Below, piece by piece: positions 10,248 through 57,951 of a stretch of 64,000 nucleotides of DNA; position 1 is the stretch's first letter, and every line of letters starts with the position of its first letter. Location of the stretch: sequence record MZ311865.1; one strand, written 5' to 3'. The stretch is from Escherichia phage vB_EcoM_LNA2. The notes under the pieces are model-generated. The model saw nothing but the letters and a program-made list of their open reading frames with translations, did not search any database and was not told the origin of the DNA. Made by a program: the position numbers and the translations under genes.

Positions 10248-10287
10248 AGTGTTTTCCTTTTAGTAATAATTTATATTTATGCCAAAA

Positions 10288-10303
10288 AGAGCCCGAAGGC
10301 TCT
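10288..10303 (-). terminator. UUCG-tetraloop hairpin
   Basis: AGAGCC-cgaa-GGCTCT on plus strand (UUCG loop in minus-strand RNA), just upstream of alt RBS. Confidence 0.5.
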
Positions 10304-10491
10304 TAATCCACAATCGGGAGCAAAGTACGATAAACTTCAAAATTAGGGCCTTTTTCGTACTTATCAAAATTGTCCATAAAAATATTATAGGAATCGTTAT
10401 TAGGAAAATCTAATATAATCTGAGAGCAAGAGGTGGAAACATCTCCACCATCCTTCTTAGCTACAATAACTGTTTCTAAATAAGCTTTCAT
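10303..10491 (-). CDS. hypothetical small protein
   Basis: Track ORF 10303..10512; likely start at internal Met (MKAYLETVIV...) overlapping the ligase stop. Confidence 0.35.
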   Translation of the reverse strand: MKAYLETVIVAKKDGGDVSTSCSQIILDFPNNDSYNIFMDNFDKYEKGPNFEVYRTLLPIVD

Positions 10492-14597: not shown

Positions 14598-14609
14598 AAT
14601 TTCCTCAGT

Positions 14610-14625
14610 GGGAGCCGAAGCTCCC
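14610..14625 (-). terminator. UUCG-tetraloop hairpin
   Basis: GGGAGC-cgaa-GCTCCC on plus strand. Confidence 0.55.
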
Positions 14626-14632
14626 AGTTAAA

Positions 14633-15512: not shown

Positions 15513-15550
15513 ATCTTTTTTTAAACTTTTTCTGCCCTAAACGCACAAAA

Positions 15551-15568
15551 GGGAGACCGAAGTCTCCC
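15551..15568 (-). terminator. UUCG-tetraloop hairpin
   Basis: GGGAGAC-cgaa-GTCTCCC on plus strand, immediately 3' of the small basic ORF. Confidence 0.55.
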
Positions 15569-15573
15569 TAAAT

Positions 15574-30535: not shown

Positions 30536-30553
30536 GGGAGACCGAAGTCTCCC
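30536..30553 (-). terminator. UUCG-tetraloop terminator after gene 32
   Basis: GGGAGAC-cgaa-GTCTCCC on plus strand, a few nt 3' of the gene 32 stop. Confidence 0.6.
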
Positions 30554-38872: not shown

Positions 38873-38890
38873 GGGAGACTTCGGTCTCCC
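38873..38890 (+). terminator. UUCG-tetraloop hairpin after gene 35
   Basis: GGGAGAC-ttcg-GTCTCCC followed by T-run. Confidence 0.6.
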
Positions 38891-47093: not shown

Positions 47094-47118
47094 TGTTTTG
47101 TGAGAAAAATGCACAAAA

Positions 47119-47134
47119 GGGAGCCGAAGCTCCC
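47119..47134 (-). terminator. UUCG-tetraloop hairpin after gene 52
   Basis: GGGAGC-cgaa-GCTCCC on plus strand. Confidence 0.55.
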
Positions 47135-47210
47135 TAATCATGTTTGTCCAACCAATACAGCCAAATCACTAGTGCAGCTATTGCACCGAGAAATCCTAAG
47201 GCTAGGGCAC

Positions 47211-50986: not shown

Positions 50987-51002
50987 GGGGACCGAAGTCC
51001 CC
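50987..51002 (-). terminator. UUCG-tetraloop hairpin after rIIB
   Basis: GGGGAC-cgaa-GTCCCC on plus strand. Confidence 0.55.
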
Positions 51003-51964: not shown

Positions 51965-54178
51965 TTATTTGGCCGCTTCCACGGCCTTCATGAATTTAAC
52001 GATTTGAGCGACCTGTTCTTTAGAAAGAGTACCACGTCGTCCCATGTATTCTGACACAATATGATAATTGGTTTCAAATTCAATAACCATTTTATCATCA
52101 TTATCGTAAGCATTATCTTTAAGCTTATCGAAAATTTTAGCACACAATTCTAACTTCTTATTCAGATCTCTGTTAGTAGCACCCGAGAATCGATTCCAAC
52201 CCCAACGATTATTTACTGTTGAAAGTTTTGCAAAATCTTTACTGATTTCTTTGTTCTTAGAGCTAAAATACTTACTAAGGAAGTTAAGCTCTTCATTACG
52301 AGTAATATGATTCAAATAAGGCTGTGCTCTACGACTTGGTGATACATACTCATCATAATCCACTTTATCAATTAGCGTAATATAGTCGTTAATTGATTTT
52401 TCGAACAAGCATTCTACTTCACCAAGTTTACGAACTTTCTTAGCAATCTGTGGACGAACTACAGTGAACTCTTTAATACCTGACAAATCAGCAATACGGG
52501 TCAAGAAATTGGAGTCATAGTTCAACCAACCTTTATCTGCGTCAAGACATTCAGCATTAGAACGATTACGAACTATAGCATAACCTTGGATTTCATCAGC
52601 TTCACTCGCTGGAATAAAGAGATCTTCTAATACCCAAACATCGTTTTCATTCTTAAAGAACCGATGAGCACTTGGAGATTTAGGACGAGGCTCATTAGTT
52701 CGTTTCCTGACTTCAATCCATGGTTTAACGATTTGTAAAAGCTCTGAAGTCTTGTACATGTTAATGCTATCGCCATCAAAGATAACTTTAAGGCGTTCCA
52801 GAAGTTTCATTGCATCTTCGTCTGTAGGGTCAACGAATAGTACGCTTTTACCAAAACCGCGTGGAACTTTACCGGTTAATTTAACCTCGTCTTTAGACAT
52901 TTCAATTGAATTAAGAGCTCGCATTAATGGAACGCGTCCCTTAACGTCGTCAATAACAATTTCAACGTTTTTAATGTTAATGCCAATCAGACTGTTAATT
53001 GAAATGGTTGCCGTTGAGCTACCGCTTTCACGAATACGACGAAGACGAGGGGATTCAACGATATCGTATACGACACCAAGATTACACCACTCAGGCCCCA
53101 TTTTAAAACGTTTGTACAACTCAGAATAAGTTAGTTGTTCTTTAGAGTATTTCAGTGATTCAATATTAGACCCGGCCTTTTCCATGTATTTACGAGCGGT
53201 ATAGCCAAGAGAATCAATTTCACGGAACACATGACGTGGGTATTTACAATCAATCCATTTCTTAGAATCTTCAGCAAATAATTTTGCATCGATTTCTGCA
53301 ACACGTTTATGGATATTTGCTACTGTACGTTTATCAAATGACAATGCTTCACGAGACGGGGCTACATCTAGTTCACCCATAGGGAATTTAATATAAGCTG
53401 TAGTGCATCGCGTCATCATCCATGTTTGTTCTTTAATAACACTTCCGATTGGATATACAATACCACCATAAACAGCCATGATATTACCACGTTCACCCCA
53501 TGGAGCTTCCTTGGCCAAATATACATCGTCAAATTCTGGGAAGTATTTGATATCTTTAACACCGCGAACTTCTGCAATATCACCTAGAGGACGCATAACA
53601 TATGCAATTTCAGATGCGAACTTTTCAAAATCTTCTGGGTTAACCGGTACAACTACTTCTACACCCGTACGGTCATCAGGGCCCATCTTATCTACAAAGG
53701 TTGGCTTAATCTGTGGACCACTGTCATCTTGGTAGATTACGTAACCACGAACTTCACCATTGTGATAAGACGTAAGGTTAAACGTATCAGTATATGCTAG
53801 CGGAGCTTTAGAGCCGAGTCCGAATCCACCAATGAAATCGTTACTCGATGTTTTAGTTGAAGCAAAATATGAGTTATAGATTCCTGGCTCTTCGTCATTA
53901 CCTCGAATGGTGAAATCACTCATACCAGGACCAAAGTCTCGAACTACAAAACGTGGGTCTAAACGACCTGGAGCCTGAACAATAAACTTATCAGTGCAAC
54001 CGTTAAGAATTTGTCCATCGATACAGTTTGTAATTAATTCACGTACACAAGCCAATTCTTTGTTTGTATAAAGGTCATTAGACAAAATCTTATAAACTTT
54101 GCTATTGCCTTGAATAGTAAATGCTGTGCTCTTACCGCCTGAACCAATAATCGTTTCTTTAGCCGTTTCAATAATCAT
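51965..54178 (-). CDS. rIIA: rIIA protein
   Basis: 737 aa (T4 rIIA 725 aa); adjacent to rIIB. Confidence 0.85.
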   Translation of the reverse strand: MIIETAKETIIGSGGKSTAFTIQGNSKVYKILSNDLYTNKELACVRELITNCIDGQILNGCTDKFIVQAPGRLDPRFVVRDFGPGMSDFTIRGNDEEPGIYNSYFASTKTSSNDFIGGFGLGSKAPLAYTDTFNLTSYHNGEVRGYVIYQDDSGPQIKPTFVDKMGPDDRTGVEVVVPVNPEDFEKFASEIAYVMRPLGDIAEVRGVKDIKYFPEFDDVYLAKEAPWGERGNIMAVYGGIVYPIGSVIKEQTWMMTRCTTAYIKFPMGELDVAPSREALSFDKRTVANIHKRVAEIDAKLFAEDSKKWIDCKYPRHVFREIDSLGYTARKYMEKAGSNIESLKYSKEQLTYSELYKRFKMGPEWCNLGVVYDIVESPRLRRIRESGSSTATISINSLIGINIKNVEIVIDDVKGRVPLMRALNSIEMSKDEVKLTGKVPRGFGKSVLFVDPTDEDAMKLLERLKVIFDGDSINMYKTSELLQIVKPWIEVRKRTNEPRPKSPSAHRFFKNENDVWVLEDLFIPASEADEIQGYAIVRNRSNAECLDADKGWLNYDSNFLTRIADLSGIKEFTVVRPQIAKKVRKLGEVECLFEKSINDYITLIDKVDYDEYVSPSRRAQPYLNHITRNEELNFLSKYFSSKNKEISKDFAKLSTVNNRWGWNRFSGATNRDLNKKLELCAKIFDKLKDNAYDNDDKMVIEFETNYHIVSEYMGRRGTLSKEQVAQIVKFMKAVEAAK

Positions 54179-54190
54179 ATTTTTCTCTCA

Positions 54191-54391
54191 TCACAAGTTA
54201 CGTTTAAAAATTTCTGCCACTTCGAGAAGTTCTTCTTTAGTAGCTGTATCGGTTTGTATTTTATATCGAATTTCTTTAAAGCGTTCTTTAAAGGACTCTG
54301 CTGACTCGATATCAAAAAATCTTTGGATAAGCCGGAATTCCCGGAGCACTGCTTTATCAAAAAGTTCCAAGTCCACGTTATATGTTCTCAT
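54191..54391 (-). CDS. hypothetical protein (rIIA.1 position)
   Basis: 66-aa ORF immediately upstream of rIIA; a second track ORF 54175..54360 in another frame is rejected. Confidence 0.45.
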   Translation of the reverse strand: MRTYNVDLELFDKAVLREFRLIQRFFDIESAESFKERFKEIRYKIQTDTATKEELLEVAEIFKRNL

Positions 54392-54415
54392 AATATTCTC
54401 TTCAGTAGATTCCTA

Positions 54416-54470
54416 GGGCACTATTACTAAAGACCATATAATCTATCATCTTATGTGTAATAGTGCCTCA
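54416..54470 (-). promoter_or_regulatory. long-loop hairpin between glycosyltransferase gene and rIIA.1
   Basis: About 11-bp stem GGCACTATTAC...GTAATAGTGCC with ~29-nt AT-rich loop. Confidence 0.35.
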
Positions 54471-54483
54471 GGCTATTCAGGAT

Positions 54484-55584
54484 TTACGCTGTGAAGATTT
54501 TATCCCACATCGCAACAACTGCATCTCGATTATACTTCTTCCATACTGCTTCAGCACGTTTAACTCGAGCTTCGTATGTGTCAGTGAATTCTAATACAGC
54601 TTTTGTGTAAAGCGCAACTACTTCTTTCTTAGGAGTAGAGGAATCAATTTCTACACGCACAGTATCTGGGTCGTATTCGAATGTCGCATGAGGATAATCC
54701 TTAAAAACTAACTGGATTACAGGGACACCTTTAGAGATGGCTTCAATAGAACTATTCTCTACCGTACCTGTGTCAGGACACGTATTAATAAGTGCTTTAG
54801 CTGTTTTAAGACGTTCCATAATTTCACTGTGTGGAGCATCAATAATAACAGGATATTTAGCCGGTGGCGCCCATTTACTAGGACAGTATCCTACACCATT
54901 TTCGCCTAGTGCTTTAATCGCTTCAAGAGCAACATCAGTACGACGCATTTTAGTGTCATAACGTTGTGCACTAATAATCAGATCCGTCGCCGGAAGAACT
55001 TCTGGCTTTTCAGTCAAACAAATAACCGGATAATCTTCGGCTTCAAACAACGGATTTGCTCGCCAATAATCATAATCAATTTTGTCAGTCAGACCTGAAG
55101 TCATATAACAATATTTGCGTTCAAATTCACGGAAGGCTTTAGTAGGAGCATAGCTCTTCCCACCATTCTTATGAATTTGAATAGTCTGGTCCCAAATTTG
55201 AACAATGCCACGAGATACTGGTTCAAATGGTGTTGCCATAAAATTCTTATGAACTTTAGAGAGACCTGCGTCTTTAATTGCCTGAACGGTTAGTTTAGTC
55301 GGTTCCATAGTAACAACAAAATCGTATTCATGGATGCCGGCTAGTTCAACAATCTTACGAGCCATAGTATAACTCATACCTAGACTGAATTTTGTCAGAT
55401 GACCAACAGGATGATGATTAACTTTCCAATCACCAAATGTGTCATTATCAAAACCGATATAATCAATATCAGCACCGATGGACACAAGATATTTCAACAC
55501 GTTCAAATGAACCGCTTCAAGACCACCTTGTACACGTTCTGGGTTAAATGGGACTGCACGAGATGGGATAAACATAACTTTCAT
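54484..55584 (-). CDS. GT-B fold glycosyltransferase (GT4-like), candidate DNA sugar-modification enzyme
   Basis: 366 aa; N-terminal MKVMFIPS...GG.EAV..NVLKYL and C-terminal TGTVENSSIEAISKGVPVIQ (E-x7-EA-x3-G-x-PVI) typical of retaining GT-B glycosyltransferases; no T4 gene occupies this position. Confidence 0.7.
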   Translation of the reverse strand: MKVMFIPSRAVPFNPERVQGGLEAVHLNVLKYLVSIGADIDYIGFDNDTFGDWKVNHHPVGHLTKFSLGMSYTMARKIVELAGIHEYDFVVTMEPTKLTVQAIKDAGLSKVHKNFMATPFEPVSRGIVQIWDQTIQIHKNGGKSYAPTKAFREFERKYCYMTSGLTDKIDYDYWRANPLFEAEDYPVICLTEKPEVLPATDLIISAQRYDTKMRRTDVALEAIKALGENGVGYCPSKWAPPAKYPVIIDAPHSEIMERLKTAKALINTCPDTGTVENSSIEAISKGVPVIQLVFKDYPHATFEYDPDTVRVEIDSSTPKKEVVALYTKAVLEFTDTYEARVKRAEAVWKKYNRDAVVAMWDKIFTA

Positions 55585-55610
55585 AATTAAGCCTTATTAA
55601 AATTAAAATG

Positions 55611-55628
55611 AAGCTCCCGAAGGAGCTT
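55611..55628 (-). terminator. UUCG-tetraloop hairpin after gene 39
   Basis: AAGCTCC-cgaa-GGAGCTT on plus strand, overlapping the gene 39 stop. Confidence 0.5.
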
Positions 55629-57444
55629 AGGACATCCATTCTTTACGAAGTTCTGAATCATCACCCATCAACATTTCAAAGAGTTCTTTCCAATTTTCAG
55701 GAAGTTTAACTACGTCGTACACAGGGTTCTGAATCATTTCACGATATTCTGACTTTTCAAGGGAGCCTAATCCCTTGATGTATCGAATACTGTGCTTAGG
55801 CAGTGTATCTTTAACTTCTTCGTACTCAGCCACAGTATAAAACCATTTTTGAGTTTTGCCAATTTGTGCAATAATTACAGGCGTTTTAACAAAGCGAATA
55901 CGTCCTTGTTCAAACAATTCAGGCCAATTACTAAAGAAAGCAAGCAAAGCCGGATAGATACTTCCAAGACCGTCATGATCGGCATCGGTCATAATTGCAA
56001 TATTACGATAGTTCGTATTCTCTGCCTTTTCACCAAGAATAAGACCCGTGATAGCACAGATATCAAAGAGCTCTTTGTTCTTCATCATATCAGCATATGA
56101 CATACCCCAGCTATTCATCACCTTACCACGTAATGGGAATCCACCGTGTAGTTCACGGTCACGAACATCAATGAGATAACCAATTGCCGAATCACCTTCT
56201 GTTAAGAACAATGTCGTATCTGCATCTTTACCGCATTGGTTAGCTTTAATATGCTTATGAACCTTAGCTTTAGTTGCCTTTTTAGCTGCTTTAGTTTCTG
56301 CAGCCTTTTCTGCTGCCAATTTACGAGCTAATGCTGCTTCAACAATAGGCATAATCAAGGCTTCGTTTTTAAGAAGTGCCTGAGCAATTTTCTTAGCATC
56401 TAATTGGATATGATTACGAATATCACCATACGTTGACGTTAAACGTTCTTTAGTCTGAGAATCAAAACGCATGTTGCTCATGTCTCTAATAAACATCAAC
56501 ATTGTGAGACATTCTTTAACACGAGCTTTAGTGACTTCAATACCCTTATATTTCTTTTTAATACCAGGCAAAAGATGTTCGCAGATATCATCCATTACAC
56601 ATTCAACATGATGACCACCATTTTTAGTATGGATGTTATTCACGTAAGTTAAATGACGGAAGCCATCTGGTGATGTTGTGAATGCCATAGAGACTCTATC
56701 GTTTTCTTGAATGATGTTATCTTCGCCAAATTGTTTAGCAAATCGTTTAAAATTACCATCAACCTTTTTACCATTAAATGTGAACTTGATATCAGGATAA
56801 ACGACTGCCAATGTTTGAAGTCGGTCTAAAGTAATATCTAAATAAATTTGAGATAAATTATGCTCTTCAAATGAAGAGAAATCAGGAGTGAAGATTACTT
56901 TAGTGCCTTTACCTTTAGATTTCTTAGAAGACCATGATTTGTTTTCCATTCCGTTTGAACAGTTAACAGTGATTTCATTTTCGCCATCTGACGTGATGCC
57001 TGTAAACAACGTAGAGAAGATATTAGTTAAACTACTCCCGACGCCGTTCATACCACCAGTCTTGCGTTCAGAGTCATCACCAAAGTTACCACCAGCCTTT
57101 GGAATAGTCCAGGCTGCTACAGGCCCAGGAATTTGTTCACCTGTTTGGTCGGTAACTAAACCTTGAGGAATACCACGTCCGTTATCTTCCACTGAGACTT
57201 GATTATTTTTAATTTGCACATCGATTTTATTTGCAAACTTAAATGATGTACGAATAGCTTCATCAACCGAGTTGTCAATAATCTCATCGATTAATTTAAC
57301 CAGACCAGGAACATATTCAACTTGTTGATATTTGCCAAACAAAAAACGCTCATGTGCTTCTTTAGCAGAAGAACCAATATACATACCACTACGTTTCTTA
57401 ATATGTTCTACATCTGACAATACCTTAATTTCATTTTTAATCAT
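55627..57444 (-). CDS. 39: DNA topoisomerase II large subunit gp39 (unsplit 39+60 form)
   Basis: 605-aa single ORF with GHKL ATPase/Toprim-type features; no separate gene 60 and no inserted homing endonuclease. Confidence 0.9.
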   Translation of the reverse strand: MIKNEIKVLSDVEHIKKRSGMYIGSSAKEAHERFLFGKYQQVEYVPGLVKLIDEIIDNSVDEAIRTSFKFANKIDVQIKNNQVSVEDNGRGIPQGLVTDQTGEQIPGPVAAWTIPKAGGNFGDDSERKTGGMNGVGSSLTNIFSTLFTGITSDGENEITVNCSNGMENKSWSSKKSKGKGTKVIFTPDFSSFEEHNLSQIYLDITLDRLQTLAVVYPDIKFTFNGKKVDGNFKRFAKQFGEDNIIQENDRVSMAFTTSPDGFRHLTYVNNIHTKNGGHHVECVMDDICEHLLPGIKKKYKGIEVTKARVKECLTMLMFIRDMSNMRFDSQTKERLTSTYGDIRNHIQLDAKKIAQALLKNEALIMPIVEAALARKLAAEKAAETKAAKKATKAKVHKHIKANQCGKDADTTLFLTEGDSAIGYLIDVRDRELHGGFPLRGKVMNSWGMSYADMMKNKELFDICAITGLILGEKAENTNYRNIAIMTDADHDGLGSIYPALLAFFSNWPELFEQGRIRFVKTPVIIAQIGKTQKWFYTVAEYEEVKDTLPKHSIRYIKGLGSLEKSEYREMIQNPVYDVVKLPENWKELFEMLMGDDSELRKEWMS

Positions 57445-57495
57445 GTTGTCTCCTCGTTATGAAGGTATTCTATCATCCGAAATCTAAAGCAAAAA

Positions 57496-57507
57496 GGGCC
57501 GAAGCCC
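57496..57507 (-). terminator. short UUCG-tetraloop hairpin upstream of gene 39
   Basis: GGGC-cgaa-GCCC on plus strand. Confidence 0.4.
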
Positions 57508-57951
57508 TTATTTAAATTTAATTTTCTGAAGTGCATCAATTGCAGCTAAACGCCCTTGTTCACTTTTAACTGTAATGACCACATCGCCTGATACGATCAC
57601 CGAACCATCAACAAATTCTATAGAGCCTTTTTTGAAATCGACAGCTGTATCTGGTTCCGGAACTTCTTCAAAGAATTTAAATTCTGCACCATAAATCAGA
57701 ATATCACCTTGCATACTAATGATTGTACGTCTAGGTCCATCGGTTTCAGCGGCAATCATTGAAACACCATAACCAATCATCTCTTCTACAATAAAATCTC
57801 TTGATAATAAAACTGTATGCAGAGTAGTGTTAAGACGTTTACCAGTTGTATTAAGAATTCTCAAGAAATTATCTTCTTGACCTTTGATAATACGATATTT
57901 CTTACCAACTTCAAAACCTTTAAAACCTTTAAAAGCCGTATTAAAAGCCAT
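57508..57951 (-). CDS. hypothetical protein
   Basis: 147-aa ORF, TAATTATG junction with the upstream zinc-ribbon ORF. Confidence 0.45.
   Translation of the reverse strand: MAFNTAFKGFKGFEVGKKYRIIKGQEDNFLRILNTTGKRLNTTLHTVLLSRDFIVEEMIGYGVSMIAAETDGPRRTIISMQGDILIYGAEFKFFEEVPEPDTAVDFKKGSIEFVDGSVIVSGDVVITVKSEQGRLAAIDALQKIKFK

Follow-up and report, generated by a model that had tools for sequence, protein, structure and literature searches.

The 366-residue protein encoded beside rIIA in Escherichia phage vB_EcoM_LNA2 is probably a chain-extending DNA arabinofuranosyltransferase that adds the second sugar to modified cytosines, a reading drawn from published chemistry and comparative genomics to which we assign a probability of roughly 80%. 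The stretch of phage DNA analysed here (64,000 nucleotides of record MZ311865.1, hereafter the window) was previously annotated from its letters alone, and that first-pass annotation suggested an alternative DNA hypermodification or anti-restriction system. Such a pathway does exist, and is protective against restriction, but it is not new. A protein 98% identical to ours is already in the PDB, and the gene itself is known: a near-identical copy of its product already has a name, an assigned pathway and a crystal structure. The hypermodification concerned, arabinosylated 5-hydroxycytosine, was only recently defined in phage DNA, and a phage carrying this gene is predicted to have di-arabinosyl cytosines in its DNA, which matters for the choice of therapeutic phages, for the sequencing and cloning of phage DNA, and for phage engineering.

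Identity and genomic setting of the gene

A 24-kb stretch of the window is ~96% identical to several Mosigvirus genomes. The 1.6-kb region around the glycosyltransferase is 95–99% identical in ~150 records, and reaches 98–99% with many Mosigvirus genomes (e.g., UGJNEcP1/2, APCEc01 and mar005P1). Judged by these nucleotide matches, the window is Mosigvirus DNA, from an RB69-like T-even phage. The open reading frame and both flanking hairpins lie exactly where they had been annotated (Table 1), and the gene order rIIA, rIIA.1, glycosyltransferase, 39, with all four genes on the minus strand, is the same in the window, RB69 and HY126.

Table 1 Features at the glycosyltransferase locus, in window coordinates
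Feature	Coordinates	Strand	Description
rIIA	51965..54178	minus	
rIIA.1 homologue	54191..54391	minus	66 aa
Spacer	54392..54483	minus	92 nt, glycosyltransferase stop to rIIA.1 start; contains the long hairpin
Long hairpin	54470..54416	minus	11-bp perfect stem, 4-bp lower stem, 29 nt enclosed
GT-B glycosyltransferase CDS	54484..55584	minus	ATG start, 366 aa; RB69 gp3/ORF003c orthologue by sequence
Putative ribosome-binding site	55592..55595	minus	AAGG, 7 nt 5′ of the glycosyltransferase ATG; predicted from sequence
UUCG-tetraloop hairpin	55611..55628	minus	7 bp, then U-rich tail; terminator scan match
Gene 39	55627..57444	minus	unsplit topoisomerase II large subunit, 605 aa

The window protein matches its phage mogra counterpart completely (100% identity). 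It is identical at 362 of 366 residues (99%) to RB69 gp3, also called ORF003c (NP_861693.1), and at 358 of 366 (98%) to the copy in the HY126 genome (XAN60436.1); at ≥95% identity it occurs in ~155 Mosigvirus-type phage records. A sequence search of the PDB matched the HY126 protein (9IQZ/9IR0, E 6e-249). At the level of sequence, these identities establish the orthology of this Mosigvirus gene with RB69 gp3 (ORF003c) and with the crystallised HY126 glycosyltransferase. The first-pass annotation was therefore correct in placing a candidate RB69 arabinosyltransferase near rIIA, the window protein being the orthologue of that candidate (PMC6024577). The copy in Bas46 carries the annotation ‘putative hmC-arabinosyltransferase’.

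Only 4 to 8 scattered substitutions separate the window protein from RB69 gp3 and the HY126 protein, for example E16 in the window versus D16 in both, and T191 in the window versus N191, and none falls at a family-invariant residue. The HY126 genome record (PP658200.1, 4244-5344) translates as SKGVLGIQ around residues 288-289, whereas the PDB sequence of the HY126 protein, the window and every family member read SKGVPVIQ, with P288 invariant; the LG of the genome record is probably a sequencing error in that record or a construct difference.

The statement that T4 has no gene at this position holds insofar as T4 lacks this gene, but the T4 interval between rIIA.1 and 39 is occupied by gene 60, 60.1 and mobA, none of them related to the window glycosyltransferase. 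Their presence reflects the divided topoisomerase subunit of T4, encoded by genes 39 and 60 on either side of 60.1 and mobA, whereas gene 39 is unsplit in the window, as in RB69.

A GT-B fold with a non-canonical acidic pair

The family is recognisable only through structure or phage-specific profiles. A Pfam scan of the window protein returned no family at E ≤ 1, and the same scan of 10 family members gave a single weak match (PF20706, GT4-conflict, E 0.0028). PHROG 8302, labelled ‘unknown function’, matched across residues 1-366 (E 1.5e-222), and when every PDB chain was searched by sequence and by profile, 9IQZ/9IR0 were the only significant matches. Word-indexed protein searches recovered only 5, then 10, relatives, and an exhaustive search of 1.84 billion representative proteins found 10 clusters at E ≤ 1e-10; the gp3 family is small and phage-restricted.

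We modelled the window protein with AlphaFold from a 10-sequence alignment (mean pLDDT 91.1), and the top Foldseek matches of the model were 9IR0, deposited as ‘phage HY126 glycosyltransferase with UDP’ and released 2025-07-16, followed by its apo counterpart 9IQZ (TM 0.94–0.96). Because the model matches the HY126 crystal structures, in which the fold had already been shown experimentally, the GT-B fold predicted in the first-pass annotation is confirmed for the modelled protein. Beyond the HY126 protein, the nearest structural neighbours are GT4 enzymes with a GT-B fold. Identity to GT4-type GT-B enzymes (sucrose-phosphate synthase 6KIH, BshA, PimA, MshA and WaaG) is 9–15%, and the acceptor proposed for the window protein, modified DNA, is unlike those of the bacterial and archaeal GT4-type enzymes.

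The GT4-type hallmarks quoted in support of the fold survive only in part. The quoted string, TGTVENSSIEAISKGVPVIQ, occupies residues 272-291, but no GT4 profile matches the protein and the canonical EX7E motif is absent: the spacing is E276-x4-E281-A-x3-G286-x-P288-V-I, not E-x7-EA, and Gly stands at position 273, eight residues ahead of E281. The acidic pair is accordingly E-x4-E in the window protein and E-x7-E in bacterial and archaeal GT4-type enzymes. A ten-member family alignment shows no variation at G20, G21, E276 or P288 and near-invariance at R208, K215 and E281.

The T4 alpha- and beta-glucosyltransferases are far more distant than the RB69 candidate, at 9% identity (structural alignment to 1Y6F) with no detectable sequence homology. 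Their genes lie elsewhere in the genome, as previously noted, and they transfer glucose onto the hydroxymethyl group of hydroxymethylcytosine (hmC), whereas the sugar and base published for RB69 and Mosigvirus NP are arabinofuranose and 5-hydroxycytosine.

Arabinosylated 5-hydroxycytosine in RB69-like phages

Thomas and colleagues detected arabinose in RB69 DNA and named ORF003c as the likely arabinosyltransferase from HMM and HHpred searches (Thomas et al. 2018, PMC6024577). Later studies (2025-2026) established that the modified base is 5-hydroxycytosine and not hydroxymethylcytosine, with the sugar ether-linked directly at C5 (PMC13326640; PMC13390438), and the first-pass annotation, which had assumed hydroxymethylcytosine, is superseded on this point. 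In RB69 the precursor 5-hydroxy-dCMP is made by gp48, a thymidylate-synthase homologue (Lee et al. 2026, PMC13326640). RB69 DNA contains mono- and di-arabinosylated forms, the latter being beta-D-Araf-(1->3)-alpha-D-Araf-5-hydroxy-dC; gp46:47, encoded in a cluster between DNA polymerase and uvsX, is the proposed first transferase, and gp3 is listed, as a proposed role, as ‘beta-arabinosyltransferase 2’ (PMC13326640). An independent study found the same mono- and di-arabinosyl nucleosides in Mosigvirus NP (PMC13390438), and the Mosigviruses Bas46 and Bas47 have been described as doubly arabinosylated.

Arabinosylated 5-hydroxycytosine blocks many restriction enzymes, some CRISPR-Cas systems and the glycosylase Brig1, while arabinosylated DNA is still targeted by GmrSD-type enzymes such as BrxU. 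Bas46 lacking an arabinosyltransferase (Aat) is reportedly sensitised to a defence system. The literature we consulted contained no direct enzymatic or genetic assay of the Mosigvirus protein.

The RB69 reference genome (NC_004928; 2598-3498 and 6095-7781) splits p046/p047, the putative initiating transferase, and p052/p053, the bifunctional sugar-activating enzyme, into two ORFs each. In close relatives the initiating transferase is one uninterrupted tblastn match, in agreement with the published view that the RB69 splits are sequencing errors.

gp3 copy number and the length of the sugar chain

We searched phage records by tblastn for the gp3 family and for the gp46:47-type (initiator-type) transferase, judging absence of gp3 at E ≤ 1e-5. 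The gp3 family was found in 211 records, with one copy in Mosigvirus-type phages and two in Acinetobacter phages. The initiator-type transferase was found in 348, and its carriers also include Klebsiella, Serratia, Enterobacter, Proteus and Yersinia phages and Shewanella phage Thanatos; the gp3-family phages are a subset of the core-cluster carriers. One record with a Tegunavirus name, outside the Mosigvirus and Acinetobacter groups, also holds a gp3 homologue.

Thanatos, with no gp3-type copy found, is reported to carry one sugar per cytosine; the Mosigviruses RB69, NP, Bas46 and Bas47, with one copy, carry one or two; and the Acinetobacter phages, with two copies, carry three, as measured for DLP3. 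The number of gp3 genes thus tracks the length of the sugar chain, and this genome-level correlation, which is not proof, supports a role for gp3 in chain extension.

The Acinetobacter homologues connect the family to DNA more directly. In phages Maestro and DLP3 both gp3 homologues lie within the arabinosylation cluster, where their neighbours include a nucleotide kinase, the putative initiating transferase and the 5-hydroxy-dCMP synthase. The window protein aligns over its full length with DLP3 gp77 (43% identity, E 1e-109) and gp76 (40% identity, E 2e-98), sharing with both the invariant positions G20-G21, R208, E276 and P288, and shows no similarity to gp79, the DLP3 initiator candidate. 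Together, gp76 and gp77 transferred a third arabinose from UDP-Araf onto RB69 DNA in vitro; alone, they had no activity on 5hoC-only DNA (PMC13326640). The DLP3 genes form a tandem, mutually dependent pair within the cluster and the phage makes a tri-arabinoside, whereas the Mosigvirus gene is single, sits beside rIIA, and belongs to phages that stop at two sugars.

These observations bear on the original 2018 proposal for RB69 ORF003c, under which the protein would be the initiating enzyme that places the first arabinose on the modified cytosine. We now regard this as distinctly unlikely. The gp3 family is absent from many core-cluster phages, including the mono-arabinosylated Thanatos, its copy number follows chain length, and the DLP3 homologues, inactive on 5hoC DNA, act only on DNA that is already arabinosylated (PMC13326640). 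Moreover, all arabinosylating phages share another conserved transferase, adjacent to the 5-hydroxy-dCMP synthase. The earlier expectation of a transferase for a sugar on modified cytosine therefore stands as regards arabinosylation, but in the current model the sugar in question is the second arabinose, and the initiator is RB69 gp46:47.

An acceptor other than DNA (a host envelope sugar, a phage protein or a small molecule), with no part in DNA modification, is extremely improbable in our estimate. It would fit the close structural neighbours, all of which, the HY126 protein excepted, use small molecules, lipids or polysaccharides as acceptors, and the ~21 kb that separate the Mosigvirus gene from the arabinosylation cluster. 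Against it stand the position of the Acinetobacter homologues inside that cluster, their modification of DNA in vitro (PMC13326640), and the restriction of the family to cluster-bearing phages, with almost no members elsewhere in the exhaustive protein search.

The ~21-kb distance is taken from RB69 synteny, and it places the cluster, gp45-gp55 in RB69, outside the 64-kb window. As the rest of the pathway lies beyond the window, we infer its presence in this phage from near-identical relatives that carry both the gene and the cluster, for example HY126, O157 typing phage 3, UGJNEcP2 and LF82-9.

Proposed role in cytosine hypermodification

If the window protein extends the chain, as we favour, it would be a UDP-sugar-dependent GT-B enzyme acting on phage DNA after replication. 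Cytosine would first be replaced by 5-hydroxycytosine, by way of 5-hydroxy-dCMP from the thymidylate-synthase homologue, and the transferase of the main cluster (gp46:47 in RB69) would then place alpha-D-arabinofuranose on the 5-hydroxyl. The window protein would add a beta-linked D-arabinofuranose at C3 of this first sugar, with UDP-arabinofuranose as donor, to yield beta-D-Araf-(1->3)-alpha-D-Araf-5-hydroxy-dC, and the bulky sugars would protect the DNA against restriction enzymes, some CRISPR-Cas systems and DNA glycosylases.

Two findings count against an extender: the Acinetobacter homologues required each other, whereas Mosigviruses have a single copy, and the nearest structural relatives are GT4 enzymes, whereas a beta-linkage is needed. 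GT4 enzymes are usually retaining, and how the window enzyme would form a beta-linkage hinges on the donor's anomeric form. We also considered several less ordinary readings, which even taken jointly are unlikely. The single-copy enzyme may differ from its partnered Acinetobacter relatives, either by working as a homo-oligomer or by forming a beta-linkage from a GT4-like, usually retaining scaffold; it may be an initiator after all; or, separately, the 92-nt hairpin spacer (Table 1) may be a regulatory RNA that sets the amount of transcription or translation continuing into rIIA.1 and rIIA.

Flanking hairpins, expression and the question of a cassette

The first-pass annotation described the gene as an insulated cassette between two hairpins. 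In its strongest form, this would make the gene and its flanking hairpins an autonomous, insulated or mobile unit recently inserted between rIIA.1 and 39, which we judge very unlikely, although some features are compatible with it. At this position, the gene and the 92-nt spacer are confined to Mosigviruses (for the spacer, conservation is 95–100% across 154 Mosigvirus-type records, with no occurrence elsewhere), and in T4 the interval is taken by other genes. The long hairpin is also far more stable than shuffled sequence: closed by an 11-bp stem with arms GGCACUAUUAC/GUAAUAGUGCC, it folds at -28.5 kcal/mol (z = -5.0), a stability reached by none of 200 shuffled sequences.

The remaining evidence points the other way. 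The stem sequence of the long hairpin is unique within the window, and an Rfam scan of the region gave no match at E ≤ 1. The glycosyltransferase has a GC content of 39.7% and a GC3 of 27%, matching the other genes of the window (38.2 ± 1.9% and 29.1 ± 4.4%, respectively), and base composition compared with those genes shows no sign of recent acquisition. The 42-nt gap between gene 39 and the glycosyltransferase holds only the UUCG hairpin with its U-rich tail and the putative ribosome-binding site, and a sigma-70-like promoter scan of this gap and of the 92-nt spacer produced no passing match. With no promoter match in either gap, the simplest reading is that the glycosyltransferase shares its transcript with gene 39 and rIIA.1/rIIA, and we infer that it is not a self-contained cassette.

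Among the seven Mosigvirus variants of the spacer there is little divergence in the hairpin, comprising, in the stems, one mismatch and two wobble-type changes (G-C to G-U and G-U to G-C), without any doubly compensated pair. In the RB69 reference a U-to-C change creates an A.C mismatch in the stem. In T4 a canonical early promoter (GTTTAC ... TATAAT) occupies the corresponding site upstream of rIIA.1; TATTAC-16 nt-TATATG in the Mosigvirus hairpin loop resembles it weakly.

Mobile promoter-plus-stem-loop modules have been described in the hyperplastic regions of T4-type phages. We considered the long-hairpin spacer as such a module because Shigella phage JK45 (MK962757.1, 392-2288, corresponding to window 54191-55584) has two identical spacer copies flanking an extra ORF, a rearrangement that could also be read in favour of a mobile cassette. 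The extra ORF of 136 aa consists of rIIA.1 residues 1-5, a junction Gly and transferase residues 237-366, and because it is a chimera of rIIA.1 and the transferase, the rearrangement is a plain 503-bp tandem duplication across the spacer and not an inserted module. The module was rejected on this ground, together with the unrepeated stem and the lack of a promoter match. The JK45 duplication could be real or an assembly artefact.

The upstream hairpin is a generic T4-type intercistronic hairpin, either terminator-like or mRNA-stabilising, and is not peculiar to the glycosyltransferase, which counts against an insulated cassette. Read 5′ to 3′ (55628..55611), its sequence AAGCUCC-UUCG-GGAGCUU runs on into CAUUUUAAUU; the hairpin shares its opening bases with the gene 39 stop codon, and its predicted fold is -11.4 kcal/mol (z -2.2). 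UUCG hairpins occur throughout the window, where we counted 18 with stems of at least 5 bp versus 3.4 ± 1.6 in shuffled sequence, most of them intergenic, and the Acinetobacter homologue is likewise followed by one. Examples in the window lie at 10287-10304, 14609-14626, 15550-15569, 30536-30553, 38873-38890, 47118-47135, 50987-51002 and 57494-57509; the hairpins are mostly G+C-rich and followed by U runs, and several share the stem GGGAGAC/GUCUCCC.
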